Source of the DNA: a virus
Virus record (IMG/VR): IMGVR_UViG_3300032294_003343
Span: 96,001 to 160,000 of that record
Strand: one strand, 5' to 3'
Length of the DNA: 64,000 nt
Each line of letters starts with the position of its first letter. The stretch's first letter is position 1. The notes under the pieces were generated by a model that had not been told where the DNA came from, made no database searches, and saw only the letters and a list, made by a program, of their open reading frames with translations. Below, piece by piece: positions 15,449 through 38,353 of the stretch. The position numbers and the translations under genes are program-made.

Positions 15449-16035
15449 TGAAAGAATTTATAGAATTTTACGAAAAAGTTAAATCAAACAAAACACATAT
15501 TATTACAATCGATTCTGTAAAGTTTATTGTTCGTGAAATTACTTGGAAAGAAGGCTTACTGATTGATGCAAAATCGTTCAGAAAGAAAGACAATATTGTT
15601 TATCAAAATTCAGAATTTGAAAAAAGAGAAATTTTGAAGATTGCTATTCTGAGAGTATTTGACACCAATACTAATACTGATTACATACCTGATTTTGAAA
15701 CATCATTATTAGAAAAACTTGATTACACAATCATAGAAAAACTTTGGGTCGAATATCAAAATTATCTTTATCTTAACGCCGATGAAGCTAATTTTTACTA
15801 CATTGCAACAAAAAAATATTATAATCCAAATGATACAGAAACATACCCCGTGCCACCCTTAATCGTTGAAATTGATTATATGACACGAGGTTTAGTTTCT
15901 ATGAGTAAAGATGAATTTGCCAATCTTAGTATGAAAGAATTTGAAACAATTCAGTTAATTTTAGCTACTAAGAATGAAGCAAAGCCAGAAAGTGCAGCAG
16001 ATCTTGATATTGATTTAGAAAAAGAAATGCGCTAA
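15445..16035 (+). CDS. Tail assembly chaperone-like protein
   Basis: FIVREITWKE..ILKIAI..LLEKLDY pattern, located after the second tube-like gene. Confidence 0.45.
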   Translation: MMKEFIEFYEKVKSNKTHIITIDSVKFIVREITWKEGLLIDAKSFRKKDNIVYQNSEFEKREILKIAILRVFDTNTNTDYIPDFETSLLEKLDYTIIEKLWVEYQNYLYLNADEANFYYIATKKYYNPNDTETYPVPPLIVEIDYMTRGLVSMSKDEFANLSMKEFETIQLILATKNEAKPESAADLDIDLEKEMR

Positions 16036-16841
16036 AGAGTAAATGAAAGTGTGTTTTTGTATTTATTTCTAACCATTTCAGCAATTGCAGTTCTGTCCCA
16101 TTGATGGAATAAAAAATACTTCTCTCCACTTTCATTACAAACATCTGTTCCATCAAAAAATACATCAACATTATCTCTTTTTATTGCTTCACCTGTAGCA
16201 CAAAAAGTATCAGTATATGGATGGCATAGCATAATATTAGGATTTTGTTTAAATTGTCTGTATAGATATCCCAACATAGCCTGATCTGGAATTACATAGC
16301 TATATCTTCTATTTATTGCTGTGAGAATAAGTGTGCAATAATTTAGAAATGCACTAGTTTTTCCGCCATATGTTCCACCATTGATTACATAAGAATCATC
16401 ATATCTTTCTTTGTTAAAAACTAATGTATTCAAAGTCCATTCATGCCATGCAGCATTACAATCATTTTCTTTTATTTGCATGCCTTCACAAACTAAAAAT
16501 AACTCTTTTTCTGGATGGCTTGCCATAAACTCAAATGGATCTTTTTGAATAATTACATCTCGCATGTCCCATTGCATGCAGTAATCAAAATCTTTACCAT
16601 GTTCACAAATCCAATTGTAATATGCAACATATGTCAAGTTGAAAGGATTCATGTTTTCTTCAACTTCTACTATATAATCGTAGTATTTTCTAAGTTTCTC
16701 TATGTTGCTTTGTGAAACATCATGTACACAAATTAGTTTCTTGAAGTTTTTTTGTTTTGCTAAAGATTGAAGATAAATATCAGCATCAATAGAGTCTAAT
16801 ATTCGATCACCTTGCAAAAAATTAAGCATTAAGTTATTCAT
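16032..16841 (-). CDS. Putative GT-A glycosyltransferase
   Basis: WDMRDVIIQKDPF (DxxD-type motif), VINGGTYGG, PDQA and HQWDR motifs. Confidence 0.65.
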   Translation of the reverse strand: MNNLMLNFLQGDRILDSIDADIYLQSLAKQKNFKKLICVHDVSQSNIEKLRKYYDYIVEVEENMNPFNLTYVAYYNWICEHGKDFDYCMQWDMRDVIIQKDPFEFMASHPEKELFLVCEGMQIKENDCNAAWHEWTLNTLVFNKERYDDSYVINGGTYGGKTSAFLNYCTLILTAINRRYSYVIPDQAMLGYLYRQFKQNPNIMLCHPYTDTFCATGEAIKRDNVDVFFDGTDVCNESGEKYFLFHQWDRTAIAEMVRNKYKNTLSFTL

Positions 16842-16878: not shown

Positions 16879-17712
16879 CTATTTATTAAAATTACCAGAT
16901 ATCAATAATTCTTCATAAGTTTTCTTAATTCCAGAATGCAATCCAATCAAATTGATATCAAAAAGATGCAGATTATATTCACCATAATAACTTAATCCTA
17001 AATTTTCTTTTTCAATAATTGTTTCAACATTATAATCAGATAAGTTATTGATAATTGTTGCAATATCAGATAGTTTGTATTTTTGCTGATATGAACAATT
17101 TATAGTTTGTTGTTTTACACTAGCATCGATTGTGAACTTTACAACTTGACATAAATCATCCATATAGAAAAAGTCCATAAATTTATCTTGATGAATTTGT
17201 ATAGGTTTTCTATTTATGTAATTTATTATGTTAGCTTTGATCATTCTAGAAGTAAGTTCATCACTATTGAAAACATTAAATAGTCTTATATTATAAAAAC
17301 CTTTCAATAAAAGTCCAGATTTAGCAATTAAGTTCTTGCTCATTCCATATGGATCGATTGGATGTGCGCACTTCAAATCAGTTGAAAAGTCTATGTTATA
17401 TCTTCGGTCTAATTCTGCACCTGATCCAAATGAAATATATTTATCAAAAGACAAAGAATTATCTAAAATATTTTGATGCATAATACAGTTTTCGTAAAAA
17501 ACAGTATTTTCATCATCTTTAAGTCTACTTCCACCAGTTGTTGCAGTATGAATGACAACATCAAAATACTTGTCTTTAAAAAAATGTTTTACTTCTTCTG
17601 AATTTAATAAATTAAGATTTGATCTATTAGTCAGAGTCAAATTATAATCTTTAAGATTTTTTGCTAAATTTCTAGCTACAAATCCATTTGAACCTGTGAT
17701 CAGGATATTCAT
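16879..17712 (-). CDS. NAD-dependent epimerase/reductase (extended SDR)
   Basis: ILITGSNGFVA Rossmann motif and YGMSK catalytic motif. Confidence 0.85.
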   Translation of the reverse strand: MNILITGSNGFVARNLAKNLKDYNLTLTNRSNLNLLNSEEVKHFFKDKYFDVVIHTATTGGSRLKDDENTVFYENCIMHQNILDNSLSFDKYISFGSGAELDRRYNIDFSTDLKCAHPIDPYGMSKNLIAKSGLLLKGFYNIRLFNVFNSDELTSRMIKANIINYINRKPIQIHQDKFMDFFYMDDLCQVVKFTIDASVKQQTINCSYQQKYKLSDIATIINNLSDYNVETIIEKENLGLSYYGEYNLHLFDINLIGLHSGIKKTYEELLISGNFNK

Positions 17713-19430
17713 TTAATGTCTTCTAAACTTCCAGGAATAATTTTGCCATTTTCATCAATACCTTTTGCAGATACTTTTGGCTCATGAAGTTCCCAAGGAT
17801 CTGTCATCACTTCAATAATTTCAGGACCTGAATGTGAAAAAGTACTTTGTATTAAGTCAAGTTGATTATTGTTCAATATTTGACTGTACTTAATCCCAAA
17901 AGCATCAGATATTTTTTTGAAATTTGGAAGAGTAACTCCTGATGAAGGTTCAGAACCAACTAAATTTCCTTTGAAAAATGAATTTTGTGTAAGTTTGATT
18001 GATAAGTACCCATCATTATTCAGAATAAATATTTTGATTGGTAAATTATGATGAACGACAGTTTGCAATTCTTGCAAGTTCATCATAATACTCCCGTCGC
18101 CTTCTATGCAAATGATAGTTTTATTACATCCATAATAGGCTCCTATTGCTGCAGGAAGACCATAGCCCATTGGAGCAGTACCTTCATTAGAAAAAAGCTG
18201 TTGATTTGATCGCAGCCTTACAGTCTTGTGAAGAACAACATGAGCTGTTCCATCACTAGTAACTATAATGCTATCATCATCAAGAAATTCTTCTAACTTT
18301 TCAGAAAACACATAGGTACTTACATAGTTTTCTAACTTTCTATGTTTATCTAATACAAGTTGTTCTTCAGATCTTTTGAGCTTAATATAGTCCAGCCATT
18401 CTCTTATATCAAAGTTTGCTTCATATGTTTCAAAAAACTCAAAAAAATTCTTTAAATCTAAATTGATTCCAATGAAAGAATCATTTTGATCAAATTTTTT
18501 TATTTCAAAATTATCTACATCTATTACTATTTTTTTAGCATTTGGAGCAAACTTGTTAAGATCGTATCCAATTACTTTAGGATTTAATCTAGACCCTAAA
18601 GATATAATAAAATCAGCTTGTTGAATTATCTGGTTTGATGTTTTTTGCCCTAAGATTCCAATTTTACCAGTGTAAAATTCATAATCATAATTGATAATGT
18701 CTACTGCTGAATGAGGTCCTGATACAACTGGCAACTGATACTTTTGAATAAAATTCTTAAGCTCATTGATGGTGCCAGAAGATTTAATTCCATTGCCTAT
18801 AACAACAACTGGCTTTGATTTTTGAAAATTATCAAAACAACTTTTCAATAATTCTATTTGTTTTGAATTGTCACTTTCATCAAATATTTGAGCAGATTTA
18901 AGAGATTCAACATCAATTTCCGAGGCTTGAATATCAAGAGGTACATCCAACCATACGGGTCCTGGTCTCTTATTAACGCATTCATTCCATGCAGTTTCCA
19001 AATGATATTTAATTTCATTTTTATCATAAACTGTTTCTGCATACTTAGTCATAGTTTTTACTGTATTGACAATATCAAATTCTTGTTGTCCAATTTGTCT
19101 ACATCCAGTATTGATTGACATTTGCTCAGTAGGAACTTGACCAGATATAACTATCATTGGGATAGAATCTTGGTAAGCACACAAAACTCCAGTAATTGCA
19201 TTTGTTCCTCCTGGACCAGTAGTAACCAAAACACAACCAGGTTTACCAGAAGTTCTGAAATATGCTTCTGCTGCCATTGCACAGGCTTGTTCATGGTGAT
19301 TGCAAACGTATCTTAAGCCTGATTTACCAAGTGAATCAATTAAATGCATACAGCCTCCACCGGATACGGTGAAGACTGTGTCTATGCCTTTTTCTTTTAT
19401 AAATTCAAAAATATAGTCTGATAATTTCAT
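17709..19430 (-). CDS. ThDP-dependent acetolactate-synthase-like enzyme (YerE-like sugar branching enzyme)
   Basis: HHEQACAMAAEAY, TTGPGGTNAITG and GDGSIMMNLQEL..LNNDGY motifs, in a sugar-cluster context. Confidence 0.85.
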   Translation of the reverse strand: MKLSDYIFEFIKEKGIDTVFTVSGGGCMHLIDSLGKSGLRYVCNHHEQACAMAAEAYFRTSGKPGCVLVTTGPGGTNAITGVLCAYQDSIPMIVISGQVPTEQMSINTGCRQIGQQEFDIVNTVKTMTKYAETVYDKNEIKYHLETAWNECVNKRPGPVWLDVPLDIQASEIDVESLKSAQIFDESDNSKQIELLKSCFDNFQKSKPVVVIGNGIKSSGTINELKNFIQKYQLPVVSGPHSAVDIINYDYEFYTGKIGILGQKTSNQIIQQADFIISLGSRLNPKVIGYDLNKFAPNAKKIVIDVDNFEIKKFDQNDSFIGINLDLKNFFEFFETYEANFDIREWLDYIKLKRSEEQLVLDKHRKLENYVSTYVFSEKLEEFLDDDSIIVTSDGTAHVVLHKTVRLRSNQQLFSNEGTAPMGYGLPAAIGAYYGCNKTIICIEGDGSIMMNLQELQTVVHHNLPIKIFILNNDGYLSIKLTQNSFFKGNLVGSEPSSGVTLPNFKKISDAFGIKYSQILNNNQLDLIQSTFSHSGPEIIEVMTDPWELHEPKVSAKGIDENGKIIPGSLEDIK

Positions 19431-20500
19431 TGCAAATCATCTTTTGTTAATGGACTACCTTTTTTCAAATCTTTGTTTAGGATAAATTCATTATCCATAA
19501 ATTCTCTAGAAGTGATTTGATTTATGTCTGGTAAATAAGGTACAGCCGCATAAACATCCTTTAATGTTACAGTATACCCTTTTTTCAAATCCTTATTTAT
19601 ATAAAAGCCTCGGTAAAGAGCAGCTAAATATTCACTCTCTTTTTCATCAATAATTCTTCTTTGTGATGAGGATGTTCCACACATTTGGTTTGACTTATGA
19701 AATGCTTTGAACCATTCGTCAACTTGATGAGGTAAAGAACAATATTTACTTACTTCTTTCTGCTCATGGTTTTTTGGATAAGGTATATCAATGTGTCTCT
19801 CCCAAGTCCTTACTCCTTTTGCATAAGAAATGAACATTGAAGATTCCCAATCGTGATACTCATGAGTGGAAAAACCAATTGTATGATTTGGATATTTAGA
19901 TTTCAAATAGTCTATTTGATTTAACTCAAGTTCAGAGTCTTCGCTTGGATATTTAGAAACACAATGATTTATAGCTAATGGGATTTTTCTATTGTCAAAA
20001 AATCTAACGACATCATCAATTTGTTTTTCATTAGCCCCACCAGTAGAGATAATTACAGGTTTCTTAGTACTGGCAATTTTTTGAAGCAGAATCCAATCAT
20101 TGATATCTGCACTAGAAACTTTGATAATTGGTAAATCAAATTGCACACACCAATCAACAGACTTTTCGTCAAAAGGTGTAGCCATGGGTATGCAATTAGT
20201 TTTCTTGATGTATTCGACAAGTTCAGACATTTCGTCAAAACTTAGCTTTGTTTTTAAAGTTTTTTGAATGTATCTTTCTTTTTTGGGAAGAGTAAGTAAA
20301 TCTTGATTCTTCCCATTATCAACAAACTCACTATGAATGAAATTTTCAACATCTCTGAATTGCAACTTAATTGCAGCTTTGATTTTGTTATTTCGTACAA
20401 CAGAAGCAAATTCTTTAACTATTTGTTTGCCTCTTGACAAAGAGCCCCAATGGTTATTTGCAAGCTCTAAAACAAATAAATTATGGAAAATTTCGTTCAT
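19427..20500 (-). CDS. neuB: N-acetylneuraminate/nonulosonate synthase family protein (NeuB/SpsE) with SAF domain
   Basis: ELANNHWG, KLQ, TPFD, IISTG, HCVSKYP, GFSTH and ERH motifs. Confidence 0.85.
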   Translation of the reverse strand: MNEIFHNLFVLELANNHWGSLSRGKQIVKEFASVVRNNKIKAAIKLQFRDVENFIHSEFVDNGKNQDLLTLPKKERYIQKTLKTKLSFDEMSELVEYIKKTNCIPMATPFDEKSVDWCVQFDLPIIKVSSADINDWILLQKIASTKKPVIISTGGANEKQIDDVVRFFDNRKIPLAINHCVSKYPSEDSELELNQIDYLKSKYPNHTIGFSTHEYHDWESSMFISYAKGVRTWERHIDIPYPKNHEQKEVSKYCSLPHQVDEWFKAFHKSNQMCGTSSSQRRIIDEKESEYLAALYRGFYINKDLKKGYTVTLKDVYAAVPYLPDINQITSREFMDNEFILNKDLKKGSPLTKDDLQ

Positions 20501-20507
20501 AAAAATA

Positions 20508-21404
20508 TTATAGTGTAAATTGAACTAAAGGTAAAGTAATTCCAGTTTGATCAATAACTTCAGACTTGTATCCATATGATTCCAAAATCTTTGTAAATGT
20601 ATCAATGTTAAGTACTCCATTTACATTATGAGCTTCCACAATAATTTTGGGTTTATAATGATCAAAAAACTCTTTATTTTCAAAGATAAAAGATTCTGCA
20701 CCCTCAATATCACACTTAATAAAATCAACTCTATCAAGGTTATATTTTTGTACGATATCAAAAAGAGTGTAACATTTTACTTCAACAATCTCGCCTCTTT
20801 CTCCAACAAGATCAACTGCTGAAGATCCCATATTTTGTTCAAGCGAAAATTTCAGTGTTCCAGTATGTGTCCAAACTGCAGCATTTAATAATTCAATATT
20901 CTCTGATTGAAACAACGCAATATTTTTTTGCAAGCATTCGAAGTTTGTAAAATCAGGTTCCATAGCAATAACTTTTCCTGACTTTCCAACATTATTTGAA
21001 AAAGCTATTGACGTTAAGCCAGAATATGCACCAAGGTCAAACACTACATGTCCTTCTGACAAATTAGCAAAATCCAAATATTGCTCAATTGTTACAAATG
21101 GTTCAGCAAGTGATGGGCAAAAAGGCTCAAATAAATCAAATCCCTTGACCTTATGTTGTGCAGGTTTTGAAAAATCTACTACTTTTTTCCCATCTACAAT
21201 TTTGTAAGAAACTGAACTAAAATAATAGTCAAACCCATACATTATAGTTTTTATGTAAACATTTTGTCTTTTATTGATAATAACGATTTGATCATCATTA
21301 ATAATGTGGATATTGTCATCTACTTCTACCACTTGCATGTTCAGTTCTAACATTGCTTCATAAACTGTTTTCTTTTTTGGTAAAACATCAGTTTCAGTTA
21401 CCAT
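20508..21404 (-). CDS. FkbM-family SAM methyltransferase
   Basis: VFDLGAYSG, AMEPD and DFIKCDIEGAE motifs. Confidence 0.85.
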   Translation of the reverse strand: MVTETDVLPKKKTVYEAMLELNMQVVEVDDNIHIINDDQIVIINKRQNVYIKTIMYGFDYYFSSVSYKIVDGKKVVDFSKPAQHKVKGFDLFEPFCPSLAEPFVTIEQYLDFANLSEGHVVFDLGAYSGLTSIAFSNNVGKSGKVIAMEPDFTNFECLQKNIALFQSENIELLNAAVWTHTGTLKFSLEQNMGSSAVDLVGERGEIVEVKCYTLFDIVQKYNLDRVDFIKCDIEGAESFIFENKEFFDHYKPKIIVEAHNVNGVLNIDTFTKILESYGYKSEVIDQTGITLPLVQFTL

Positions 21405-22351
21405 ATAAAATTCTCCTTATAGTATTTGATAATTTCAATAATTTCATTATCAAAAATACACTTTGGTGTCCATCCAAGATTTCGCAATTTACTGTCATTG
21501 AGTGCATATCTGACATCTTGACCTGGTCTAACAATATTAAAATCGATGTACTCTCTCGGATCTTCAATATGTTTGTCAAAGTAGATATCTAATATTTTTT
21601 CAACTGTTCTTATATTTGATTGTTCAAATCCACCAGCAACATTAAATATCTCATTTTTACAATTGTTCTCAATTATAGTCAAAACAGCGCTGGCGGTATC
21701 TTTAGCATGCAACCAATTTCTTACAGGTTTGCCTTCTGCATGTAAAGGTATTCTTCTGCCAAGTTTAAGGAATTTACACGCTTTTGGGATAAGTTTTTCT
21801 ACATATTGACCTATGCCATAATTATTTGTTGGTCTGATTATAATATAGGGTATGTTGTAAGTTCTTGACCATGCTGTAATCAATTGATCTGCAGCAGCCT
21901 TGGTTGCTGAATAAGGGTTAGATGGCTTAAGAACGTCAGTTTCAATATGTTCACCATCTGATATATCACCATAAACTTCATCAGTGCTAAAATGAATAAA
22001 TGTAGGAACAATATATCCCTCTTTTTGATAAGCCCTCAAAAGTTCAAGAATGTTATAAACACCATCAATGTTTGAATGTAAAAAATCATCACTTTTACGT
22101 ATTGAATTATCTACATGTGTTTCGGCTGCAGTATTGATAAAATAATCGCAGTCAACCAATCTATCTAAATCACATATATCTTTTTCTTCAAACTTAAACT
22201 TTGGATTAGATTTAAATTCTTCCAATTTAGAAATTCTTGATGCATATGTACATTTATCAATTCCGAAAACATACCAGCCTTTATCAAGACAAGCTTGAGT
22301 TACATATGACCCAATAAATCCTAAGCATCCTGTCACGTATACTACTTTCAT
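21398..22351 (-). CDS. rmlB: dTDP/NDP-glucose 4,6-dehydratase
   Basis: GCLGFIG, AAETHVDNS, STDEVYG, YSATK and RPGQDVRY motifs. Start moved to ATG 22351 (ATGA overlap). Confidence 0.85.
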   Translation of the reverse strand: MKVVYVTGCLGFIGSYVTQACLDKGWYVFGIDKCTYASRISKLEEFKSNPKFKFEEKDICDLDRLVDCDYFINTAAETHVDNSIRKSDDFLHSNIDGVYNILELLRAYQKEGYIVPTFIHFSTDEVYGDISDGEHIETDVLKPSNPYSATKAAADQLITAWSRTYNIPYIIIRPTNNYGIGQYVEKLIPKACKFLKLGRRIPLHAEGKPVRNWLHAKDTASAVLTIIENNCKNEIFNVAGGFEQSNIRTVEKILDIYFDKHIEDPREYIDFNIVRPGQDVRYALNDSKLRNLGWTPKCIFDNEIIEIIKYYKENFIW

Positions 22352-23223
22352 GATGTTTTCTTTTTCTTTTTGCAAGCTAGCATATATAAGTTTGTGAAAT
22401 GAACATAATCTAAAGCTGCCTGATAATTCAAAACTTGCTCCTTGATAATTTCAAGTCCACAAGATTCAATTAAGCAATGCAAAGATTTATTAGAATAAAA
22501 ATTTATATGTTCATGCCAATGTTTTTTAGTTTTATATAGATCTAATGACTCATTATTTTTTGCCATAAGATCTTCACAAGGAACCTCTAGATATAAAACC
22601 GTATTTTCGCTCATGGATTCAATTATATCCATAAGTAATTGCTTTGGATAAGAGACATGTTCAAGAACATTGCTACAAACTACCAAATCATAAGCATGAT
22701 TTTTAATCATAGATGGTTCTATTTTTTCACAATTTGGAAACAATGTTTTGTCTGTCCATTCATAGATGTAAACTTTGCTAGCTGTTTCTAAAAATGGAGT
22801 GTTTTTACCATCATCTCCTCCCCAATCCAATACGAGTGGTTTAATGCTGATAAAGTCAAGAAAACTTTCAATTTCTTTTTTATATCCAATAGCTACATCC
22901 AAATTTTTCTGTTTATCTTTATAACCTGGTTCATAAGAATCTCTGACATCTATATATTTTGATTCTCTGTAATTCTCATATAAGTTTTTTAATTCATGAT
23001 CTTCAAATCTGAAATCACTGAATAAAAAACCACAATCTTGGCATTGCACAGACTTGCAAGGCATATAAATAGTGCCATTTGGTACTCCATACAAATTCCA
23101 TGTGTCATCTATTTCAAATAAATCATAATCGAATATCATTTTTGACATAAATGGCATCAAAATAGCAGAAGATTTTTCTAGTTTTTTACTTTCACAACAA
23201 GGGCAGGATAAAGCTAAATTCAT
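22348..23223 (-). CDS. Class I SAM-dependent methyltransferase with N-terminal Zn ribbon
   Basis: CPCC..CQDC, VLDWGGDDG, SNVLEHV, YLEVP and HEHINFY motifs. Confidence 0.8.
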   Translation of the reverse strand: MNLALSCPCCESKKLEKSSAILMPFMSKMIFDYDLFEIDDTWNLYGVPNGTIYMPCKSVQCQDCGFLFSDFRFEDHELKNLYENYRESKYIDVRDSYEPGYKDKQKNLDVAIGYKKEIESFLDFISIKPLVLDWGGDDGKNTPFLETASKVYIYEWTDKTLFPNCEKIEPSMIKNHAYDLVVCSNVLEHVSYPKQLLMDIIESMSENTVLYLEVPCEDLMAKNNESLDLYKTKKHWHEHINFYSNKSLHCLIESCGLEIIKEQVLNYQAALDYVHFTNLYMLACKKKKKTS

Positions 23224-25751: not shown

Positions 25752-27260
25752 ATGCGAAAACTAGATATTTTGTTTGTACACCCCAATGCTTCTGAAATTA
25801 TTTACCAGGATTTGAGCAAAAAAAGTGCTGCAATTGAACCACCAATTTGGGCAGGCATGTTGGCAAATCACGTAAGGACTAGAAATTTTTCAGCTGCTAT
25901 CTTAGATTGTGAAGCTGAGAGATTGAATTGGGAAGATGCTAGTAAAACTATTGTTGATTATAATGCAAAAGTAATTTGTTTTGTAGTTTATGGCCAACAA
26001 CCTTCTGCTTCTTCACAAAACATGACTGGAGCAGTTGGTATTGCTAGATTAGTAAAGCAACTTACAGATACTCCTATTGTCTTTGTTGGTGGCCATGTTG
26101 CTGCATTACCAGATGAAGTTCTTGCTGAAGATTGTGTTGATATCGTACTTCTTAACGAAGGTGTGTATGCAATCTCAAACTTGCTTTCTACAGATTTGTC
26201 TGTCGAGCAGCTTAAAAACTGCACTGGAATTGGATTCAAATTAGATGGACAAATTTACAAAAATGAACCAGAAAGAATTGTTCCTAAATCCTTATTAGAG
26301 CAAGATTTACCTGGAATGGCTTGGGATTTACTTCCATCATTCAATAAATACAGAACTGCAGGATGGCATTCATGGAGTAATAATACGGAAAATGCTCCTT
26401 TTGCTGCTCTTTACACAAGTTTAGGTTGTCCTTACAAGTGCTCGTTTTGTATGATCAACATCATCAATAGAACAAGTAATCTCCCATTGATTACTTCTGA
26501 AGATTCTAATATGTTCAGATGGTGGACCCCAGAATTTATTATCAAGCAGTTTGATTATTTTGCTGAAAACAATGTTAGAAATATCAAGATTGCTGATGAA
26601 TTATTTGTATTGAATCCAAATCATTTTCAAAAAATATGTAACTTAATTATTGAGCGTGGATATGATTTTAACATCTGGGCATATTCTCGTGTAGATACTT
26701 GTAAACCACAATTTTTAGATACATTAAAGAAAGCTGGTGTTAATTGGCTTGGACTTGGAATTGAAAACCCAAATCAAACTTTGAGACAAGAGATTCACAA
26801 AGATCACTTTGTTGATGTAAAAATTACTGATTTGATGCAAAATATGAGAGATGCTGGAATAAGCATTGGTGGAAATTATATTTTTGGATTGCCAATGGAT
26901 ACTCATGAATCTATGCAAAATACTTTAGATTTTGCTATGGCTAATAAAACCGAAATGGCAAATTTTTACTGTGCTATGGCATATCCAGGAAGCCCACTTT
27001 ATAAAACAGCAGTTGCAAAGGGTTGGAAGCTTCCAGAAACATATTCAGGATATAGCCAACATTCATATGACATGTTGAATTTGTCAAATGATTTTCTTTC
27101 TGCCAAAGACATCGTAGCATTCCGAGATAAAGCTTTTGTAACTTATCATTCTGATGAAAACTACTTAAACTTGTTAGAAAATAAATTTGGCGTTCATGCA
27201 AAACACAATGTTGAAGATGTGTTGAAGATTAAACTTAAGAGAAAGTTATTAGGTGATTAA
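25752..27260 (+). CDS. Cobalamin-binding radical SAM protein
   Basis: N-terminal B12-binding region (EPPIW..VGGH..NEG) and CPYKCSFC cluster motif. Confidence 0.9.
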   Translation: MRKLDILFVHPNASEIIYQDLSKKSAAIEPPIWAGMLANHVRTRNFSAAILDCEAERLNWEDASKTIVDYNAKVICFVVYGQQPSASSQNMTGAVGIARLVKQLTDTPIVFVGGHVAALPDEVLAEDCVDIVLLNEGVYAISNLLSTDLSVEQLKNCTGIGFKLDGQIYKNEPERIVPKSLLEQDLPGMAWDLLPSFNKYRTAGWHSWSNNTENAPFAALYTSLGCPYKCSFCMINIINRTSNLPLITSEDSNMFRWWTPEFIIKQFDYFAENNVRNIKIADELFVLNPNHFQKICNLIIERGYDFNIWAYSRVDTCKPQFLDTLKKAGVNWLGLGIENPNQTLRQEIHKDHFVDVKITDLMQNMRDAGISIGGNYIFGLPMDTHESMQNTLDFAMANKTEMANFYCAMAYPGSPLYKTAVAKGWKLPETYSGYSQHSYDMLNLSNDFLSAKDIVAFRDKAFVTYHSDENYLNLLENKFGVHAKHNVEDVLKIKLKRKLLGD

Positions 27261-28484: not shown

Positions 28485-29405
28485 ATGTCTACTTATCCAG
28501 AAAGAAAACAAAGATTTGAAAATTTAAAAGAAGCATGGTCATTGAATCAATTGAATGATTTGATGTTACAATACAATCCTCCTCAAAATTTATTGTCTGA
28601 TTTCAAGTTTGCTGTAATGCTTTATATTTCAAAAGCATTTGATTTTGAATTTACAGCTGATGAAACTGAATTTATTAACAGGCTTGATAGCAAGAGATAT
28701 TTTAAGGATAATGTCACGCCAAATGGAGCTGTCGTTCCAAAAAAAGAATATCAATTAGAATTTAATATGGTCTTGAGGGCATGGTCTAAATTAGTTCAAA
28801 ATATGATATCAGGCCAACCAAGTTTACTTAATAAAATTAGAATGACACCTAATGTAAGAATTAAGTTTGGTGTTGAGCTTGAAGAAAATTATGGTAGGCC
28901 ATTAAATACTAGTATTCCACATTCTGATGCCTGGATTGATGGTCCTTGGGGAATAATTTGTTTCACACCATTGCTAGGCGATGTTGAAAACAACAATTTA
29001 TATCATTATAAGCCAAAAAATCCTGATCAATTTAACGATGATTGGTTAGCATTATCGCCAACTTTCGGAGATATGCAATGGGTTTTAGAGTATTACGAGC
29101 AATCTGATGAAATAACTCCAGTGAAAGGCAAAATTCATTTAGTTGATTATGCTCTTATTCACGAAACACATAGAAATGAAAATTGTGGAACAAGAATTTC
29201 TATCGACACTACTATTTATGTGGGAGATTATGATATTCACGAAGATCGACAATCTGAATATCTTGATGAAATGAAGATTTTTGGAGAAGATCTGTTTATT
29301 ACAACAAATAGATCAGTGCATGAAAATCAAATAGTAGATAAAAAAACTTCTTTTTCTCATTACACATCAGGTACGTTAAAAATCCATAATTGCAATGACA
29401 ACTGA
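28485..29405 (+). CDS. Putative Fe(II)/2OG-type dioxygenase (DSBH fold)
   Basis: PHSDAW (HxD) followed by LIHET and TRISID. Confidence 0.55.
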   Translation: MSTYPERKQRFENLKEAWSLNQLNDLMLQYNPPQNLLSDFKFAVMLYISKAFDFEFTADETEFINRLDSKRYFKDNVTPNGAVVPKKEYQLEFNMVLRAWSKLVQNMISGQPSLLNKIRMTPNVRIKFGVELEENYGRPLNTSIPHSDAWIDGPWGIICFTPLLGDVENNNLYHYKPKNPDQFNDDWLALSPTFGDMQWVLEYYEQSDEITPVKGKIHLVDYALIHETHRNENCGTRISIDTTIYVGDYDIHEDRQSEYLDEMKIFGEDLFITTNRSVHENQIVDKKTSFSHYTSGTLKIHNCNDN

Positions 29406-30228
29406 TTATCTTACAGATGTATTTACTAAAATTTCATTATGCAGACATTTTGAAAACGTAGTTTATGAAAAAATACAAGATAAATCTATAAGAGCACCAA
29501 CTTATTTATCAGCTGGTCAGGAAAGCATTCCATGTTCAATTGCCTCTTATCTTCAAGCTAAAAATATTGACCCGAATATTTTTATTCAGCATAGGGGGCA
29601 TTCAACTTATTTGGCTTTTGATGCTTCGCCTGAAAAGCTTGTTGATGAGTTGCTCGGCCTAGAATCAGGTTGCTCTTTTGGTATGGGTGGATCAGCATCA
29701 ATTCAATCATTTGAAAAAAATATTTTTGGACATGATGGTTTGATGGGTTCACAAGTGCCCATAGCTGTTGGTCATTGTTATGAAACTAGAAGTCCGACAA
29801 TTGTTTTTATGGGAGATGCTTCTGCCGAAGAAGACTATGTAGGATCTGCAATAGGTTGGGCATCTACTAAAAATTTACCCATACTTTTTATCGTTGAAGA
29901 TAATAATTTATCAATACTAACAGAGAAAAAAGTAAGAAGAAATTGGGCTATGCACGATTTGGCAATAGCCTACAAAATGAATGCTTATGATATCAGTGAT
30001 GATCCTACAATAATTGCTGAACATCTTAAGGACGTATTTAATGGGCCATTGTTATTAAATATAAGAACTGTCAGAAAGTATTGGCATGCTGGTGCTGGCA
30101 TAGATGGAGATTATTTTGATAGATATGAATGGCTCAAAAAAATTATGCCACTTGAAGTATTGAATATTGATGAAGAAAATAAAAATAGGGTAGAGGCATT
30201 ATGGCAATCACGCTTAGAGAAACTATAA
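29395..30228 (+). CDS. ThDP-dependent E1 alpha-like subunit
   Basis: YLSAGQE, QHRGH, GMGGS and GDA..EDNN ThDP motif. Confidence 0.85.
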   Translation: MTTDYLTDVFTKISLCRHFENVVYEKIQDKSIRAPTYLSAGQESIPCSIASYLQAKNIDPNIFIQHRGHSTYLAFDASPEKLVDELLGLESGCSFGMGGSASIQSFEKNIFGHDGLMGSQVPIAVGHCYETRSPTIVFMGDASAEEDYVGSAIGWASTKNLPILFIVEDNNLSILTEKKVRRNWAMHDLAIAYKMNAYDISDDPTIIAEHLKDVFNGPLLLNIRTVRKYWHAGAGIDGDYFDRYEWLKKIMPLEVLNIDEENKNRVEALWQSRLEKL

Positions 30229-31112
30229 AATCTTTAGTCAAAAATCATTTGCTTGAAAAAAAGGGCAAAGTTTATGGGCAATGTTTATCAGCTGTTGGAT
30301 GGGTAGGCGGAACATTGCCAGAACTCTTTGAAGAAGATGGCATGGTTGATTTATCAATGGCTGATGTTGCTAATGGTGCAATAACTGTTGGTGCTGCACT
30401 TGCAAACACAAGACCAATTTATGTCGTCCGATATCAAGGATTTCAATGGTACAACTGTGTTTCAATATTAAATTACGCAGCTAAAAGTAAGGATATTTGG
30501 AAAAGATCTTGTCCTGTATTAGTGAGAAGTGTTGCTATGGAAGGTGCAATTGGACCAGTTGCAGGTTCATCTCATCACTCTTTATTTTATAGAATGCCAG
30601 GAATAAAAATTGTTTCTCCTATGACTCCAAATGAATACGAACATGCATACAATGAATTTATGAATGATGATGTTCCATATTATTTTTCAGAACATAGAAA
30701 AAGTTTTGATAATGACAAAGACTTAGAAAACATCATTTATGAAGACGCTGACGTTGTGCTGATTCCATTTTCAGTGACAAGATTTTCAGCTCAAAAAGCA
30801 TCTGAAATTTTATTCAATCAAGGTATTAAATGCAATGTCTTGCACCAATTGTGGATAAAGCCATTGAAGTTTGATGATAATTTTTATAAAAATGCTTCTA
30901 ACTGCAAATATGGTTGCATTGTGCTAGATGACGATTATACGTCAGGCATAATTGAATCTGTGGCATACAAATTAAGTAAAAAAATAAATAAGCCTATAGA
31001 ATGTATGGGTTTAGATGATAAAACTGCTGGTTTTGCTAAAGAACATGATAATTTGCCTCCAGATGAACATCAAATAGTAAAAAAAGTGATTGAAATGATT
31101 GGTAAAAGATAA
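30201..31112 (+). CDS. ThDP-dependent E1 beta-like subunit (transketolase pyrimidine-binding plus C-terminal domain)
   Basis: Follows the alpha subunit. NYAAK..PVLVR, MPGIKIVSPMTP and WIKPL motifs. Confidence 0.8.
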   Translation: MAITLRETIKSLVKNHLLEKKGKVYGQCLSAVGWVGGTLPELFEEDGMVDLSMADVANGAITVGAALANTRPIYVVRYQGFQWYNCVSILNYAAKSKDIWKRSCPVLVRSVAMEGAIGPVAGSSHHSLFYRMPGIKIVSPMTPNEYEHAYNEFMNDDVPYYFSEHRKSFDNDKDLENIIYEDADVVLIPFSVTRFSAQKASEILFNQGIKCNVLHQLWIKPLKFDDNFYKNASNCKYGCIVLDDDYTSGIIESVAYKLSKKINKPIECMGLDDKTAGFAKEHDNLPPDEHQIVKKVIEMIGKR

Positions 31113-32180: not shown

Positions 32181-32786
32181 ATGAAAAACTATACTGAGCA
32201 AGAATTGATCGATTTTGAAACTGATATTGCAAACTGTTTCAACAATTTAATGATAAAGGCTGTAATCCATTTATCAAATGGAAATGAAAAACAACTTATT
32301 GATATATTCAAAAATATCAATGAAGATGACTGGGTATTCTGTTCATGGAGATCACACTATCAGTGTTTATTGAAAGGTGTTCCTAGCGAAAAACTTAAGC
32401 AAGACATTATAGACGGTAAATCTATGGCTTTAAATTACCCAGAATATAAAGTGTATTCTTCTGCAATTGTAACAGGCAATATACCAATTTCAGTTGGAGT
32501 GGCATTAGATATTAAGCGCAAAAATTTATCCAACCACGTTTGGTGTTTTGTTGGCGACATGACTTCAGAAACTGGCACATTTTTTGAAAATTGGAAGTTT
32601 GCTGTCAATCACGATTTACCAATCACCTTTGTTATAGAAGATAATAATAAATCTGTGTGTTCTGACACTAGAAAAGTATGGAACACTGAAAAGTTATTCT
32701 TTGAAGAACCTAAACCAAAAGTTATATTCTTCAAATATGAATCAAAATATCCACATGCTGGAGCTGGAAAAAGGATACAGTTTTAA
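32181..32786 (+). CDS. Short ThDP-dependent E1 alpha-like subunit
   Basis: IHLSNGNE, SWRSHY and GDM..EDNN motifs in 201 aa. Confidence 0.8.
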   Translation: MKNYTEQELIDFETDIANCFNNLMIKAVIHLSNGNEKQLIDIFKNINEDDWVFCSWRSHYQCLLKGVPSEKLKQDIIDGKSMALNYPEYKVYSSAIVTGNIPISVGVALDIKRKNLSNHVWCFVGDMTSETGTFFENWKFAVNHDLPITFVIEDNNKSVCSDTRKVWNTEKLFFEEPKPKVIFFKYESKYPHAGAGKRIQF

Positions 32787-33322
32787 TGAAATACGCAGAT
32801 GAATTAAAAAGATCAATGGATTGGCTTGCTTCTAAAGAAGATACATTATTCTTGGGACAGGCAGTAGAATATCCAGGCACAGCGATGTCAAACACATTGA
32901 AAGATGTAAATCCAGAAAAATTATTAGAAGTACCAGTAGCTGAAGACATGCAAATGGGAATGACTCTAGGTTTAGCTTTAAATGGCACTTTTCCTATTTC
33001 TTTTTTCCCCAGATGGAATTTCTTAATATTAGCAGCAAATCAATTAGTAAACCACATTGATAAAATCAAGATTATGTCTGATGGAAATTTTAAACCAAAA
33101 ATTATCATTAGAACATCTATTGGTGCACAAAGACCACTTCACCCACAGCATCAACATATAGCTGATTACACAGCTGGTTTCAAGGCTATGTGTGACTTTG
33201 TTGATATCATCAGATTAGAAGAAGCACATCAAATTTTTGATGCTTATAAATATGCATATGAAAGAACTGATGGTAGACCAACAATCTTGGTTGAATGGGG
33301 AGATTTCCTTAACGAAAAATGA
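32786..33322 (+). CDS. Short E1 beta-like subunit (pyrimidine-binding domain only)
   Basis: FLGQ, EVPVAEDMQMG, NQLVNH and PQH motifs in 178 aa, with no C-terminal domain. Confidence 0.8.
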   Translation: MKYADELKRSMDWLASKEDTLFLGQAVEYPGTAMSNTLKDVNPEKLLEVPVAEDMQMGMTLGLALNGTFPISFFPRWNFLILAANQLVNHIDKIKIMSDGNFKPKIIIRTSIGAQRPLHPQHQHIADYTAGFKAMCDFVDIIRLEEAHQIFDAYKYAYERTDGRPTILVEWGDFLNEK

Positions 33323-35461: not shown

Positions 35462-35963
35462 GGTTGAAGCTTTATCCAATGTTATAATCAAACAAGTCGA
35501 TAGCTTCCATGATCACAGAGGGCAGCTTTTTACTTTATGGGAAAAATCTGACTTTGACTTTTTAAATTTCAACCATGATAAAGTTGCAATTTCGCACAAA
35601 AATGTACTAAGGGGACTTCATACTGATAAATCTTGGAAGCTTATCACTTGCATTCATGGATCAATACAGTTAGTAGTTGCAAATATTGATAAAAACAGTC
35701 AGGAATATTTAGACCATATAGATATCATCATAAATTCTGATGACAAAATTAAAACTTTTGTTCTTGTTCCACCTGGTTATGTAAATGGGCATCTCGTACT
35801 AAGTGATGAAGCTGTGTTTTATTACAAATGGTGTTACGAAGGTGAATACCCAGACATGAAAGATCAGTTGTCAGTAAATTGGGCAGATCCAAAGTTAGAC
35901 ATAAATTGGCTTACAGATGACCCAATACTTTCTGACAGAGATAAAAAGACCCGATTATTATGA
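35454..35963 (+). CDS. rmlC: dTDP-4-dehydrorhamnose 3,5-epimerase family
   Basis: FHDHRG, NVLRGLH, KLITCIHG, VPPGYVNG and PILSDRD motifs. Confidence 0.88.
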   Translation: MAKVEALSNVIIKQVDSFHDHRGQLFTLWEKSDFDFLNFNHDKVAISHKNVLRGLHTDKSWKLITCIHGSIQLVVANIDKNSQEYLDHIDIIINSDDKIKTFVLVPPGYVNGHLVLSDEAVFYYKWCYEGEYPDMKDQLSVNWADPKLDINWLTDDPILSDRDKKTRLL

Positions 35964-36730
35964 AAGAACTATATAAAGATATCAAAATATTAGTAATTGG
36001 CGACTCTTGTACTGATATTTTCACCTATGGAAATGTACTAAGACTTGCTCCAGAAGGGCCAGCTCCTGTTTTCAACCCTTTATTTACTACAAATAATGGT
36101 GGTATGGCATTAAACGTAGCTGCAAATATTTCTGCTATTGGAGCTAATGTCAAGCTAATTACCCAAGATGAAAATATAACTAAAACTAGATATATAGACC
36201 AAAGAACTAATTCACTATTATTGAGGATAGATGAAAATGATACATCATCTAAAATTTCAAAACATATACTCAATAATTTAATAGATAATGTATATGAAGA
36301 TGTCAAATATGATGCAATTATTGTAAGTGATTATTGTAAGGGTTTTTTATCAGAAGAAGATATAGAAACTATAGCTACTAGGAATTCGAAAGTATTTTTA
36401 GATACAAAAAAGATCTTAGGCGAATGGTGCAATGATGTAACATTCATAAAAATTAATCATACTGAATATGATAAGACAAAGCATACTATCGATTATTTAG
36501 GTTTGTACGGGAAGATGATTATAACAAGATCTGATGAAGGTTGTGAGTATGATCATTCAATTTTTCCAGTTGAAAAAGTAAATATCAAAGATGTTTCCGG
36601 CGCAGGAGATACATTTATTTCTGGACTTGTATGTGAATTTATCAGAACAAATAATATTGTTGAGGCGATAAAGTTTGCCCAAGAATGTGCTACTCAAGTA
36701 GTTCAAAAGAAGGGAGTTTGTACTATATGA
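35960..36730 (+). CDS. PfkB-family sugar kinase, RfaE/HldE kinase-domain-like
   Basis: ILVIGD, RLAPEGPAPV, GGMALNVAAN, VSDYCKG and DVSGAGDT motifs. Confidence 0.85.
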   Translation: MKELYKDIKILVIGDSCTDIFTYGNVLRLAPEGPAPVFNPLFTTNNGGMALNVAANISAIGANVKLITQDENITKTRYIDQRTNSLLLRIDENDTSSKISKHILNNLIDNVYEDVKYDAIIVSDYCKGFLSEEDIETIATRNSKVFLDTKKILGEWCNDVTFIKINHTEYDKTKHTIDYLGLYGKMIITRSDEGCEYDHSIFPVEKVNIKDVSGAGDTFISGLVCEFIRTNNIVEAIKFAQECATQVVQKKGVCTI

Positions 36731-37017
36731 ACATGAAAGAATATTATGCAATGTACTTAACTTTGCATCAAAACAAAATTTGCAGACGATTGCATGTCTT
36801 AGGACAGTTTATGACAATTATGTGGGTTGTAGGCTGTTTTCGTTTTGAATATTATTGGTTTTTATTATTGACACCATTTATTGTTTATCCGTTTGCTTGG
36901 TCTGGTCATTATTTCTTTGAGAAAAATAAGCCAGCTGCATTTAAGGATCCAGTTAAGGCTAAAATTAGCGATTGGATTATGCTATTTGATATTCTTCGAG
37001 GCAAAGTACCATTCTAA
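36727..37017 (+). CDS. DUF962/Mpo1-like small membrane protein
   Basis: YLTLHQNKICRRLHVLG..YPFAWSGHYFFEKNKPAAF. Start at ATG 36727 (ATGA overlap). Confidence 0.8.
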   Translation: MNMKEYYAMYLTLHQNKICRRLHVLGQFMTIMWVVGCFRFEYYWFLLLTPFIVYPFAWSGHYFFEKNKPAAFKDPVKAKISDWIMLFDILRGKVPF

Positions 37018-37044
37018 AAAAAAGAGGCTTGTAGCCTCTTTTTT
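37016..37044. terminator. Bidirectional intrinsic terminator
   Basis: aaaaaaaagaggct-tgt-agcctctttttt between convergent genes. Confidence 0.85.
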
Positions 37045-38353
37045 ATTTGTCAAAAAAACTATCTAGAACTTCACCTATATAATCAATTTGTTCTTCTGTT
37101 ATAACTGGAGACGTTCCTAAAAAGAAAGTATCAGTGGTGACTTTTTTAGCAACTGGAAAGTCATTAAGATCCATATCGGCAACTAAATGACTATAAGCTG
37201 GTTGCATCAAAATGTTTCCAGCAAAATATGGTCTAGTTTGAATTTTTTTAGATTCTAAATACTGACAAATATCACTTCTCTTAAAAGGTGCGTTATCTTT
37301 GACAGTTATTGGGAATGCAAACCAATTTACATCTGCATTCTTTTGTGCTACTGGAAGAACAAAATATTCTTCATACTTAGAAAACTTTTCTGTTAATAAT
37401 TTGTGATTTCTTTGACGTAAATTTTTAATTTCAGCAAGTTTATCAATTTGAGCTAACAACATACTGGCTTGAACTTCGATTGGTTTTAAGTTATAACCAA
37501 TTTCTTCATAGACATATTTATGGTCAAATACTTCTCCTGGCATACTAGGTAGCCATTCTGAAAATCTTTGATTGCAAGCTCCACATTCTGTAATATTTTG
37601 TTTACCAATACAAAAACATCCACGACCCCAATCACGAATAGAACGGATCACTCTTTCTAAATTATCATCATTACAAACAACTAACCCGCCTTCTCCACAA
37701 GTAATATGATGAGCAGGATAGAAAGAACAAGAAGCCATAGTGCCGAAGCTGCCCAAAGGATTACCGTCGAATGATGAACCTAAAGCATCACAACAATCCT
37801 CAAGTAATATTAATCCATAATGATCAATAATATCTAATAATCTGTACATGTCAGGAGGATTTCCTAACACATGAGCAAATGTTATGATTTTTATTTCTGG
37901 ATCTGCCTGTAAAGTAGCTTCTACATCATCTAAATTTAAGTTTAAACCATCTAAAGAAATATCTACAAAAACAGGCTTGAAACCACATTGAAAAATCGGG
38001 TTTATAGTAGTTGGAAAACCAGCAATAGGAGTAAGTACTTTAGTTCCTTCAGGTAAATTAAGATATCTTTTTGACTTCAAAGCTGACATCATGAGAAGAT
38101 TTGAGCTACTACCTGAGTTAGTCAATAAAGCGTGGTTTTTACCGAATAGAGAGGCTAATTTTCTCTCTGCTTTATATGCTTCAGCTCCTAAAACTAACCA
38201 ACCATCTAACAACGTAGAGACTGATCTAACAATTTCAGTATGATCAAAATAAGGACCAGCATAATGAACATGATCTTTGCCAGGTCTCCATTTTTTATTT
38301 GGTTCGCTTTTGATATAATCTTCAACTATTTTGAGCAATTCTTCTTTAGTCAT
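37043..38353 (-). CDS. rfbH: CDP-4-keto-6-deoxy-D-glucose 3-dehydrase (E1, RfbH/DdhC)
   Basis: TNSGSSSNL, FPTTINP, SFYPAHHITCGEGG, RDWGRGCFC..C (Fe-S) and DHKYVY..IGYNLK motifs. Confidence 0.9.
   Translation of the reverse strand: MTKEELLKIVEDYIKSEPNKKWRPGKDHVHYAGPYFDHTEIVRSVSTLLDGWLVLGAEAYKAERKLASLFGKNHALLTNSGSSSNLLMMSALKSKRYLNLPEGTKVLTPIAGFPTTINPIFQCGFKPVFVDISLDGLNLNLDDVEATLQADPEIKIITFAHVLGNPPDMYRLLDIIDHYGLILLEDCCDALGSSFDGNPLGSFGTMASCSFYPAHHITCGEGGLVVCNDDNLERVIRSIRDWGRGCFCIGKQNITECGACNQRFSEWLPSMPGEVFDHKYVYEEIGYNLKPIEVQASMLLAQIDKLAEIKNLRQRNHKLLTEKFSKYEEYFVLPVAQKNADVNWFAFPITVKDNAPFKRSDICQYLESKKIQTRPYFAGNILMQPAYSHLVADMDLNDFPVAKKVTTDTFFLGTSPVITEEQIDYIGEVLDSFFDK

Follow-up and report, generated by a model that had tools for sequence, protein, structure and literature searches.

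A predicted phage pathway to a nucleotide-activated 3,6-dideoxy sugar with a C-4 branch

Background

Does a viral gene that annotation pipelines call acetolactate synthase serve amino-acid synthesis, or does it belong, together with the sugar enzymes encoded around it, to the making of a branched sugar? To our knowledge, C-branched sugars formed by YerE-like enzymes are known from bacterial surface polysaccharides only, and no paper on YerE-like C-branched sugar genes in a virus was found in the literature searched. The gene in question lies in the IMG/VR viral record IMGVR_UViG_3300032294_003343 (169,183 bp, linear, 47% complete by CheckV), from which a stretch of 64,000 nt, here called the window, was analysed. 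A portal protein, a large terminase and a prohead protease are all encoded within the window, which bears out the viral origin named in an earlier reading made from the sequence alone; the record is a 169-kb fragment of the genome of an uncultured giant phage. No tRNA genes were found in the window. The sequence-only reading had proposed a CDP-based, yersiniose-type route, in which an acetolactate-synthase-like enzyme would add a two-carbon branch from pyruvate to a 3,6-dideoxy sugar.

Results

The glycan island of the window contains a minus-strand operon of seven genes, running from 23223 down to 16032 (Table 1). The stop codon of the NeuB-family gene overlaps the start of the thiamine diphosphate (ThDP) gene as ATGA, and the stop of the ThDP gene shares the same four-letter arrangement with the start of the short-chain dehydrogenase/reductase (SDR) gene, in keeping with the translational coupling of the latter pair claimed before. 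Two members of the operon were absent from the sequence-only reading: the NeuB-family gene coupled upstream of the ThDP gene, and a glycosyltransferase-fold gene downstream of the SDR gene. The rfbH gene, reported there as well, is an intact open reading frame that scores above its family cut-off; it lies at the far edge of the island, 18 kb from the ThDP gene and beyond a second, plus-strand operon with a DegT aminotransferase, an RmlC-like epimerase and two E1 alpha/beta pairs of its own.

Table 1. Genes assigned to the proposed sugar module (window coordinates)
Coordinates	Strand	Assignment	Length	Basis and remarks
22348..23223	-	Class I SAM-dependent methyltransferase		Pfam Methyltransf_23, 53 bits; first gene of the operon
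21398..22375	-	NDP-glucose 4,6-dehydratase, dTDP (RmlB) type		TIGR01181 and PDB matches
20508..21404	-	FkbM-family methyltransferase		Pfam Methyltransf_21, 67 bits; TIGR01444, 101 bits, above cut-off
19427..20500	-	NeuB-family PEP-dependent synthase, non-sialic subfamily		Pfam NeuB, 134 bits
17709..19430	-	YerE-like ThDP-dependent carboligase	573 aa	Pfam TPP_enzyme_N/M/C; labelled 'acetolactate synthase' by pipelines
16879..17712	-	Extended SDR	277 aa	Pfam Epimerase (70 bits), RmlD_sub_bind
16032..16841	-	GT-A-fold glycosyltransferase		AlphaFold2 and Foldseek; last gene of the operon
37043..38353	-	RfbH / E1-type PMP- and [2Fe-2S]-dependent NDP-4-keto-6-deoxyhexose 3-dehydratase	436 aa	Outside the operon

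The best PDB match of the ThDP protein, extending over its full length, is JanthE of Janthinobacterium sp. HH01 (8rph, 364 bits; PDB 8RPH/8RPI/8RPJ), a characterised YerE-like enzyme (PMC12188165) and the closest relative of solved structure, compared with 223 bits for the best acetohydroxyacid synthase (AHAS), 125 for glyoxylate carboligase and 102 for pyruvate oxidase. The three-domain ThDP fold is shared with the AHAS structures (IlvB/IlvG/IlvI) at 27-31% identity. The catalytic motifs E47, G444-D445-G446 and N471-N472 are present and are invariant or nearly so among 21 relatives, and the JanthE active-site residues Y297 and K567 are aligned to Y289 (invariant) and K552 (nearly invariant) in A1. 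JanthE differs in having CDG where the phage protein has the canonical GDG of the ThDP motif, and its Y268 aligns with a leucine. For the phylogenetic comparison with AHAS called for by the sequence-only reading, true AHAS were taken to be those with ilvN/M/H, ilvC and ilvD neighbours. Five such proteins split from the ThDP protein with 100% support both in a FastTree phylogeny of 166 rows and in an IQ-TREE LG+C20 phylogeny of 50 rows; as the trees contain no YpYerE, ErwE, MMAR_2332 or JanthE, the YerE-like side of the assignment is anchored by the JanthE score and by gene context.

That context consists of sugar enzymes, the NeuB-like gene, the SDR, methyltransferases and the dehydratase, with no AHAS small subunit or ilv genes near the ThDP gene. 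The closest bacterial relatives reside in RfbF-RfbG-RfbH-SDR-glycosyltransferase clusters, which are full in Muribaculaceae and Campylobacter concisus. No cellular relative exceeds 42% identity among the 80 loci kept from the matches listed, and the phage collection has nothing closely related, its matches being AHAS with about 30% identity that come for the most part from contigs of bacteria catalogued as phage. The reading of the gene as a true acetolactate synthase, an auxiliary metabolic gene serving the synthesis of branched-chain amino acids, would agree with the pipeline annotation and with the E-values near 1e-100 given by the NCBIfam AHAS models. Every one of the AHAS equivalogs is nevertheless under its cut-off (NF006524, 336 against 738; TIGR00118, 331 against 538), and with the separate clade and the lack of ilv context this identity was rejected as exceedingly improbable. 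The PDB scores, the two trees and the gene context support the assignment of the protein as a YerE-like sugar-branching enzyme rather than a biosynthetic AHAS, as had been suspected from the sequence.

The RfbH protein scores 443 bits with the NCBIfam RfbH model (cut-off 423), and among structures it matches Yersinia E1 (3bcx) at 322 bits versus 164 for ColD. Its H215 replaces the aminotransferase lysine and aligns with H220 of E1, and the positions of the E1 cluster ligands C193, C251, C253 and C261 are taken in the alignment by C188, C246, C248 and C260 (PMC8987622). The equivalog score, the histidine and the four Fe-S cysteines support its identification as an E1-type 3-dehydratase, on which the two analyses agree. 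A search of the 169-kb record (47% complete) for the E3 reductase detected neither Fer2 nor NAD_binding_1 domains, and NAD_binding_1 is also absent from relatives that are 89-100% complete. A known precedent is SpnQ of the spinosyn pathway. This dTDP-4-keto-2,6-dideoxyglucose 3-dehydratase is like the phage RfbH an E1 homologue with histidine for lysine and a [2Fe-2S] cluster, and it acts on a dTDP-sugar with general ferredoxin or flavodoxin reductase pairs and no dedicated E3 (PMC8987622). The two are set side by side here on these described features; SpnQ differs from the phage case in its 2,6-dideoxy substrate and in belonging to an antibiotic pathway.

The evidence on the nucleotide points away from CDP. 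The 4,6-dehydratase reaches 302 bits with the dTDP model TIGR01181 (cut-off 365) versus 63 with the CDP-type model, and its PDB matches at E<=1e-30 are dTDP-glucose 4,6-dehydratases in ten cases out of ten, the best being 2hun at 235 bits. Most of the closer viral loci have a relative of this dehydratase, 57-74% identical, next to the ThDP gene. No NTP_transferase domain (the nucleotidyltransferase, RfbF) was detected in the 169-kb record or in the records G003, G005 and G013. The sequence-only reading had already noted no sign of RfbF, RfbG or E3 in the window, and none of them turned up when the search was widened to the whole record and near-complete relatives; since the phage record is 47% complete, the absence of RfbF and E3 is read from the relatives with 89-100% completeness. 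Because neither the nucleotidyltransferase nor E3 was found even there, the host probably supplies both steps. The dehydratase is of the RmlB (dTDP) type and the route, contrary to what had been proposed, is probably not CDP-based.

The NeuB-family protein is far under the equivalog cut-offs for PseI (125 against 340) and NeuB (114 against 400). Its best PDB match is the uncharacterised 3g8r (173 bits, compared with 72 for PseI), with which two histidine-containing motifs, NHC and STHE, align, and no CMP-sugar synthetase (CTP_transf_3) was found in the 169-kb record. Of 80 viral and 80 bacterial loci, 21 and 15 respectively have a NeuB-like gene no more than 6 kb from the ThDP gene and in most cases adjacent to it; the bacterial ones come from several phyla. 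In sibling phages with the same terminase family, the position beside the YerE-like gene is occupied by HpcH/HpaI aldolases, which DHQS-like and SDR genes accompany in some cases; nothing in the 169-kb record corresponds to the HpcH, DHQS-like, adh_short and Fer4 proteins of the siblings. Across all 160 loci, NeuB-like genes are present in 36, HpcH-like genes in 27 and both together in none (Fisher p = 5e-4, with no correction for kinship), and 51 of the 80 viral loci have neither within 6 kb. The HpcH/HpaI family includes the caryophyllose aldolase MMAR_2331 and the HpaI used for ErwE donors, and in the published scheme the donor for the long branches of erwiniose, caryophyllose and gastriose is a gamma-hydroxy-alpha-keto acid (PMC9306805). 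We propose that the NeuB-family enzyme probably makes such a donor, a 3-deoxy-2-ulosonic acid. The ATGA coupling of its gene, the HpcH/HpaI aldolases of the siblings and the lack of any locus with both types make it probable that the branch has more carbons than the C2 unit of yersiniose, which tells against the pyruvate-derived branch of the sequence-only reading.

The SDR, with a GSNGF Rossmann motif and Y122xxxK126, occupies the place of the YerF-type reductase in bacterial clusters, a position that supports its proposed role, also suggested earlier, as the reductase of the branch ketone. The protein encoded at the end of the operon has no Pfam or NCBIfam match. Its AlphaFold2 model (mean pLDDT 86, pTM 0.85) retrieves retaining GT-A transferases as all of the Foldseek PDB matches listed to rank 50 (probability 1.00, TM 0.45-0.56), BoGT6a, glycogenin, alpha-1,3-GalT and ABO among them; relatives at 46-74% identity close the same module in sibling phages, and an invariant D92-x-R94-D95 is a candidate DXD motif. 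Judged by its modelled fold, the protein is a GT-A glycosyltransferase, and it is probably the transferase for the finished sugar. A tailoring role for the methyltransferase that opens the operon is suggested by the position of its gene.

The conservation of the arrangement was followed by tblastn within +-10 kb in 80 viral contigs that carry a gene related to the ThDP gene. Of these contigs, 68 have an RfbH related to that of the window, 55 an SDR of the type found here and 51 an RmlB-type gene, and the usual viral order is RfbH, RmlB, (NeuB), ThDP, SDR, all on one strand. Among 80 bacterial loci, an RfbH-type gene lies within 10 kb of the ThDP relative in 46, and SDR relatives adjoin the ThDP gene or RfbH in 12. 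The RfbH/RmlB/ThDP/SDR arrangement is beyond chance. RfbH relatives at about 60% identity adjoin RmlB and ThDP genes in other viral contigs, and the sibling phage G016 has a 94%-identical copy of RfbH with a YerE-like gene directly after it. The nearest cassette-bearing contigs gave no NCLDV capsid match above cut-off, and none of them matches the terminase of the phage under study.

Discussion

We consider it somewhat probable, at roughly 0.6, that the seven-gene operon and rfbH together make and transfer an NDP-activated 3,6-dideoxyhexose with a side branch at C-4. The RmlB-type dehydratase would convert host NDP-glucose, probably dTDP-glucose, to a 4-keto-6-deoxy sugar, from which the E1-type RfbH would take off the 3-hydroxyl, the electrons being supplied, as in the case of SpnQ, by general ferredoxin or flavodoxin reductases, here those of the host. 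The NeuB-family enzyme would condense PEP with an aldehyde to a 3-deoxy-2-ulosonic acid; the YerE-like enzyme would decarboxylate this acid and add the acyl anion to the C-4 ketone, giving a tertiary alcohol with a hydroxyacyl branch, the ketone of which the coupled SDR would reduce. The methyltransferases may then tailor the sugar, and the GT-A protein may transfer it to an acceptor such as a virion protein or the host envelope. Directly established are the family assignments, the catalytic motifs, the gene coupling, the conserved gene order and, for the records searched, a lack of RfbF- and E3-type genes; we infer all substrates, which nucleotide is used, the sequence of the reactions and the acceptor.

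Two other accounts of the same genes have to be weighed. The ThDP enzyme could add a C2 acetyl unit from pyruvate, which the SDR would reduce to a hydroxyethyl group, with the NeuB-like protein serving a separate ulosonic-acid pathway. YerE does use pyruvate, and JanthE and MyGE accept it too (PMC12247030, PMC9306805); moreover, ThDP, SDR and RfbH genes occur in many viral loci that lack both NeuB-like and HpcH-like genes, which makes it probable that C2 branches are formed within the YerE-like family. For the phage studied here we regard this account as unlikely, as the NeuB-like gene is coupled to the ThDP gene and recurs near it in viruses and bacteria, aldolases replace it in siblings, its low PseI and NeuB scores and the missing CMP-sugar synthetase speak against a separate pathway, and pyruvate is not accepted by ErwE, an enzyme with an aldolase as its partner (PMC9306805). 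The other account does without a 3,6-dideoxy sugar: the ThDP enzyme would branch a 4-keto-6-deoxy sugar, or merely decarboxylate the NeuB product, while rfbH would serve the sugar of the plus-strand operon. The distance of rfbH, the separate enzyme set of that operon and the failure to find an E3 partner in the 169-kb record fit such a division, but the RfbH relatives that adjoin RmlB and ThDP genes elsewhere, the gene order in G016 and the 4-keto-3,6-dideoxyhexose acceptor used by the characterised YerE and ErwE, and proposed for their relatives (PMC9306805), make it more doubtful still. The branched 3,6-dideoxyhexose thus remains our preferred reading.

This preferred reading has its nearest counterparts in the acyl-branched clusters for erwiniose (ErwI/ErwJ, ErwE, ErwF), caryophyllose (MMAR_2331/2332) and gastriose (MygI, MyGE, MygF), brought together in a 'unifying scheme' (PMC9306805). 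Like the phage module, these have a donor-making enzyme adjacent to one of the YerE-like ThDP type and to a reductase dependent on NAD(P)H, along with 4-keto-3,6-dideoxyhexose genes and a glycosyltransferase, and their aldolase family, HpcH/HpaI, is the one found in the sibling phages. The phage under study differs from them in that its proposed donor maker is a PEP-dependent NeuB-family enzyme instead of a pyruvate aldolase, its dehydratase is of the dTDP type, neither a cytidylyltransferase nor an E3 was found, and the carrier is a phage rather than a bacterial O-antigen or lipooligosaccharide (LOS) locus. The CDP-yersiniose A pathway of Yersinia pseudotuberculosis (RfbF, RfbG, E1/E3, YerE, YerF) has in common with it the E1-type 3-dehydratase, the YerE-like enzyme and the coupled reductase, whereas in the phage a C2 pyruvate donor is unlikely, RfbF, RfbG and E3 were not found and the nucleotide is probably not CDP.

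The YerE-like enzymes of this phage family belong to two deep clades. More tentatively, the position shared by NeuB and HpcH could be a swappable slot, through which the phage family may diversify long-branched sugars in the manner of bacterial O-antigens, by an E3-free dTDP route and PEP-dependent donors; the literature searched contained no description of the PEP-dependent making of donor acids for ThDP enzymes. If the proposed pathway is correct, the NeuB/HpcH swap among siblings would offer a clean natural test of branch-length control, and the enzymes could broaden the donor range of ThDP biocatalysts for chiral tertiary alcohols. Viral genes that go by the names 'acetolactate synthase', 'aminotransferase' and 'sialic acid synthase', of a kind that the prasinovirus literature places under amino-acid synthesis (PMC5454428), would then be sugar genes and not amino-acid genes. 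Tailed phages would be able to make some of the most elaborate monosaccharides known and to attach these to a glycan that they choose themselves.

The YerE-like enzyme and its gene neighborhood

The window belongs to a linear IMG/VR virus record of 169,183 bp (CheckV 47% complete, GC 33.6%) that represents a tailed phage, since a portal, a large terminase and a prohead-protease fusion are encoded in the window. Relatives of the terminase are present on 182 IMG/VR contigs (73–99% identity among the 80 loci kept), the longest of which reach 316 and 358 kb, so that the family is one of giant phages. The glycan island spans ~16.0–38.4 kb and includes a minus-strand gene series with ATGA overlaps at both the NeuB/ThDP and the ThDP/SDR junctions. 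The sequence-only reading correctly recorded the ThDP–SDR coupling and the position of rfbH, and missed the NeuB-like gene coupled on the upstream side as well as the gene that follows the SDR.

Genes of the glycan island (window coordinates)
Gene	Position	Strand	Remark
Methyltransferase	22348-23223	-	first in minus-strand series running 23223 down to 16032
RmlB-type dehydratase	21398-22375	-	
FkbM methyltransferase	20508-21404	-	
NeuB-family synthase	19427-20500	-	
ThDP enzyme	17709-19430	-	
SDR	16879-17712	-	
269-aa protein without family match	16032-16841	-	last in minus-strand series
B12-binding radical SAM enzyme	25752-27260	+	
PDH-E1-like alpha/beta pair	29395-31112	+	277+303 aa
PDH-E1-like alpha/beta pair	32181-33322	+	minimal, 201+178 aa
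PfkB-family kinase	35960-36730	+	
Mpo1-like protein	36685-37017	+	end of plus-strand sugar operon
rfbH	37043-38353		opposite edge of island from ThDP series

The ThDP protein scores far under every cut-off of the NCBIfam acetolactate synthase (AHAS) equivalogs (e.g. 336 vs 738), and a PDB search places JanthE (8rph), the YerE-like enzyme of Janthinobacterium sp. HH01, on top by a wide margin (364 bits over the full length; best AHAS, 223). It possesses the catalytic glutamate (E47) and the GDG (444–446) and NN (471–472) motifs, and its Y289 and K552 align with JanthE active-site residues Y297 and K567. Phylogenies of 80 viral and 80 bacterial relatives, together with five true AHAS large subunits chosen by their ilvM/N/H, ilvC, ilvD or ilvE neighbors, were built with FastTree (166 rows) and IQ-TREE (LG+C20 PMSF, 50 rows), YpYerE itself not being among the rows. 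Both trees set AHAS apart on a long branch with 100% support, and the window protein falls inside a clade of viral rows only; its closest bacterial neighbors come from Campylobacter concisus and an Arcobacteraceae MAG, with Victivallis vadensis and Bacteroidales next. Biosynthetic AHAS is thus rejected by equivalog scores, PDB ranking and tree position alike, and, as the protein does not group with these enzymes, its earlier assignment as YerE-like stands. In two bacterial relatives, C. concisus and Muribaculaceae, the homologue is surrounded by a textbook sugar cluster, consisting of a glucose-1-phosphate cytidylyltransferase (372–413 bits), a CDP-glucose 4,6-dehydratase (about 500 bits), RfbH (726 bits in Muribaculaceae; in C. 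concisus seen by tblastn only) and an SDR, to which Muribaculaceae adds a glycosyltransferase.

The window RfbH passes the NCBIfam RfbH equivalog cut-off (443 vs 423) and is closer to Yersinia E1 (3bcx, 322 bits) than to ColD (164 bits). The aminotransferase lysine position is occupied by H215, and the four cluster cysteines of E1 align with C188, C246, C248 and C260; these features, histidine for lysine and the cluster cysteines, separate E1 and SpnQ from ColD (PMC8987622). Here rfbH and the ThDP gene are 18 kb apart, but on other viral contigs RfbH relatives with ~60% identity directly adjoin RmlB and ThDP genes, and in G016, a sibling phage (terminase 96% identical), a 94% identical RfbH copy is immediately followed by a YerE-like gene.

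Donor and branch length

NeuB-family enzymes convert PEP and an aldehyde to a 3-deoxy-2-keto acid, the kind of donor required by the "unifying scheme" of sugar branching. In this scheme, an aldolase generates a gamma-hydroxy-alpha-keto acid, a YerE-like enzyme grafts it onto a 4-keto-3,6-dideoxy sugar, and the branch is completed by a YerF-like reductase; ErwE, an enzyme with an aldolase partner, rejects pyruvate (PMC9306805). By score, the window NeuB-like protein is neither a sialic nor a pseudaminic acid synthase, and no CMP-sugar synthetase was found in the 169-kb record. Members of its subfamily lie within 6 kb of YerE-like genes, mostly adjacent, in 21/80 viral and 15/80 bacterial loci, the latter spanning several phyla. 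In other phages of the family, HpcH/HpaI aldolases occupy the position of the NeuB-like gene: the order is RmlB, HpcH, adh_short, DHQS-like, ThDP, SDR, GT in the sibling G013 and RfbH, ThDP, HpcH, HpcH, Fe-S protein in G016. Among the 160 loci, 36 contain a NeuB-like and 27 an HpcH-like gene, and no locus contains both (Fisher p = 5e-4, kinship ignored). Because of the ThDP coupling, the non-sialic scores, the missing CMP-sugar synthetase, the exchange with HpcH/HpaI and the zero co-occurrence, we read the NeuB-like enzyme as a putative donor synthase, which would supply a 3-deoxy-2-keto acid to the YerE-like enzyme. The yersiniose-type C2 branch proposed from the sequence alone is disfavored by the coupled NeuB-like gene and by the aldolases at the matching position in siblings, and a branch longer than the two carbons of yersiniose would be expected.

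Many loci also contain an adh_short and 3-dehydroquinate-synthase-like pair beside the ThDP gene (L013 11739–14321; L251 14094–15751), which keeps company with a NeuB-like or HpcH gene (15 loci combine a DHQS-like with a NeuB-like gene, 3 with an HpcH-like one) and is absent from the window. The pair may point to a side chain that is carbocyclic or undergoes further processing.

The 269-aa protein at the end of the module has no Pfam or NCBIfam match and more than 120 relatives, and most of its look-alike clusters in the ESM Atlas come from viruses. Its AlphaFold2 model is confident (pLDDT 86), and every Foldseek match listed, down to rank 50, is a retaining GT-A glycosyltransferase. The homologue likewise ends the module in sibling phages; a glycosyltransferase closes the erwiniose cluster, as a GT-A-fold gene does here.

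Nucleotide and electron supply

The CDP route of the sequence-only reading does not agree with the dehydratase, which is of RmlB type (dTDP model 302 bits vs CDP model 63; 10/10 PDB matches at E<=1e-30 are dTDP enzymes); the clusters of bacterial relatives use RfbG instead. A domain search of the 169-kb record for the suggested rfbF and ferredoxin reductase returned no NTP_transferase, NAD_binding_1 or Fer2 domain, and the first two were likewise not found in cassette-bearing viral records rated 95–100% complete or in the 358-kb sibling (89% complete). NDP-glucose and electrons are probably supplied by the host. SpnQ, a dTDP-sugar E1 homologue, operates with general reductase pairs of ferredoxin or flavodoxin (PMC8987622). 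In G016, RfbH, ThDP, HpcH and HpcH are followed by a protein of 390 aa (L252 12431–13603) that has two 4Fe-4S motifs and matches LdpA_C faintly; this protein may be a phage electron donor in place of E3, and has no counterpart in the 169-kb record.

Variation and accessory genes

Between siblings, the module flanks are 74–100% identical and the ThDP and SDR genes only 38–53%. The intact ThDP copy of G016 falls in another deep clade, G014 has none, and in G015 and G016 a copy is split at the middle/C-terminal domain boundary into adjacent ORFs of ~345 and 251 aa (L253 3686–5459; G015:C1:1224–2922); the two ORFs represent a two-subunit form or else a gene in decay. In this island, cassettes appear to be swapped.

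Two stand-alone PDH-E1-like pairs, without E2 or E3 and each followed by a Glyco_trans_1_2 gene, resemble the aKADH2 (alpha-keto acid dehydrogenase type) sugar-branching enzymes AviB1/B2 and KbDH, so that the island may contain three ThDP systems for C–C bond formation. The small pair recurs in an RmlB...SDR cassette (L026, 48–51% identity) and in G016 (69–79%). The radical SAM enzyme, HpnJ/PhpK-like and well under cut-offs, possibly performs C-methylation or rearrangement of a sugar; downstream are DJ-1/PfpI, cupin and a 306-aa protein without assigned family. The PfkB-family kinase is closest to the HldE/RfaE heptose-7-phosphate kinase domain (123 bits, sub-cut-off), and relatives (34–38% identity) are near ThDP and SDR genes in nine viral loci. 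The 110-aa Mpo1-like protein (2-hydroxy fatty acid dioxygenase family), kept in G016 at 88% identity, is an odd companion to sugar genes.

Branch length, nucleotide, aldehyde and glycosyltransferase acceptor are all inferred. Keyword searches of the literature yielded no publication dealing with YerE-like enzymes or with branched sugars in viruses. In prasinoviruses, "acetolactate synthase" and "aminotransferase" have been filed under amino-acid synthesis, with "dTDP-glucose 4,6-dehydratase" also listed, and Micromonas viruses are reported to carry in addition an acetaldehyde dehydrogenase (amino-acid synthesis) and two transketolase-related genes (PMC5454428); taken together, these Micromonas-virus genes resemble a branched-sugar cassette.
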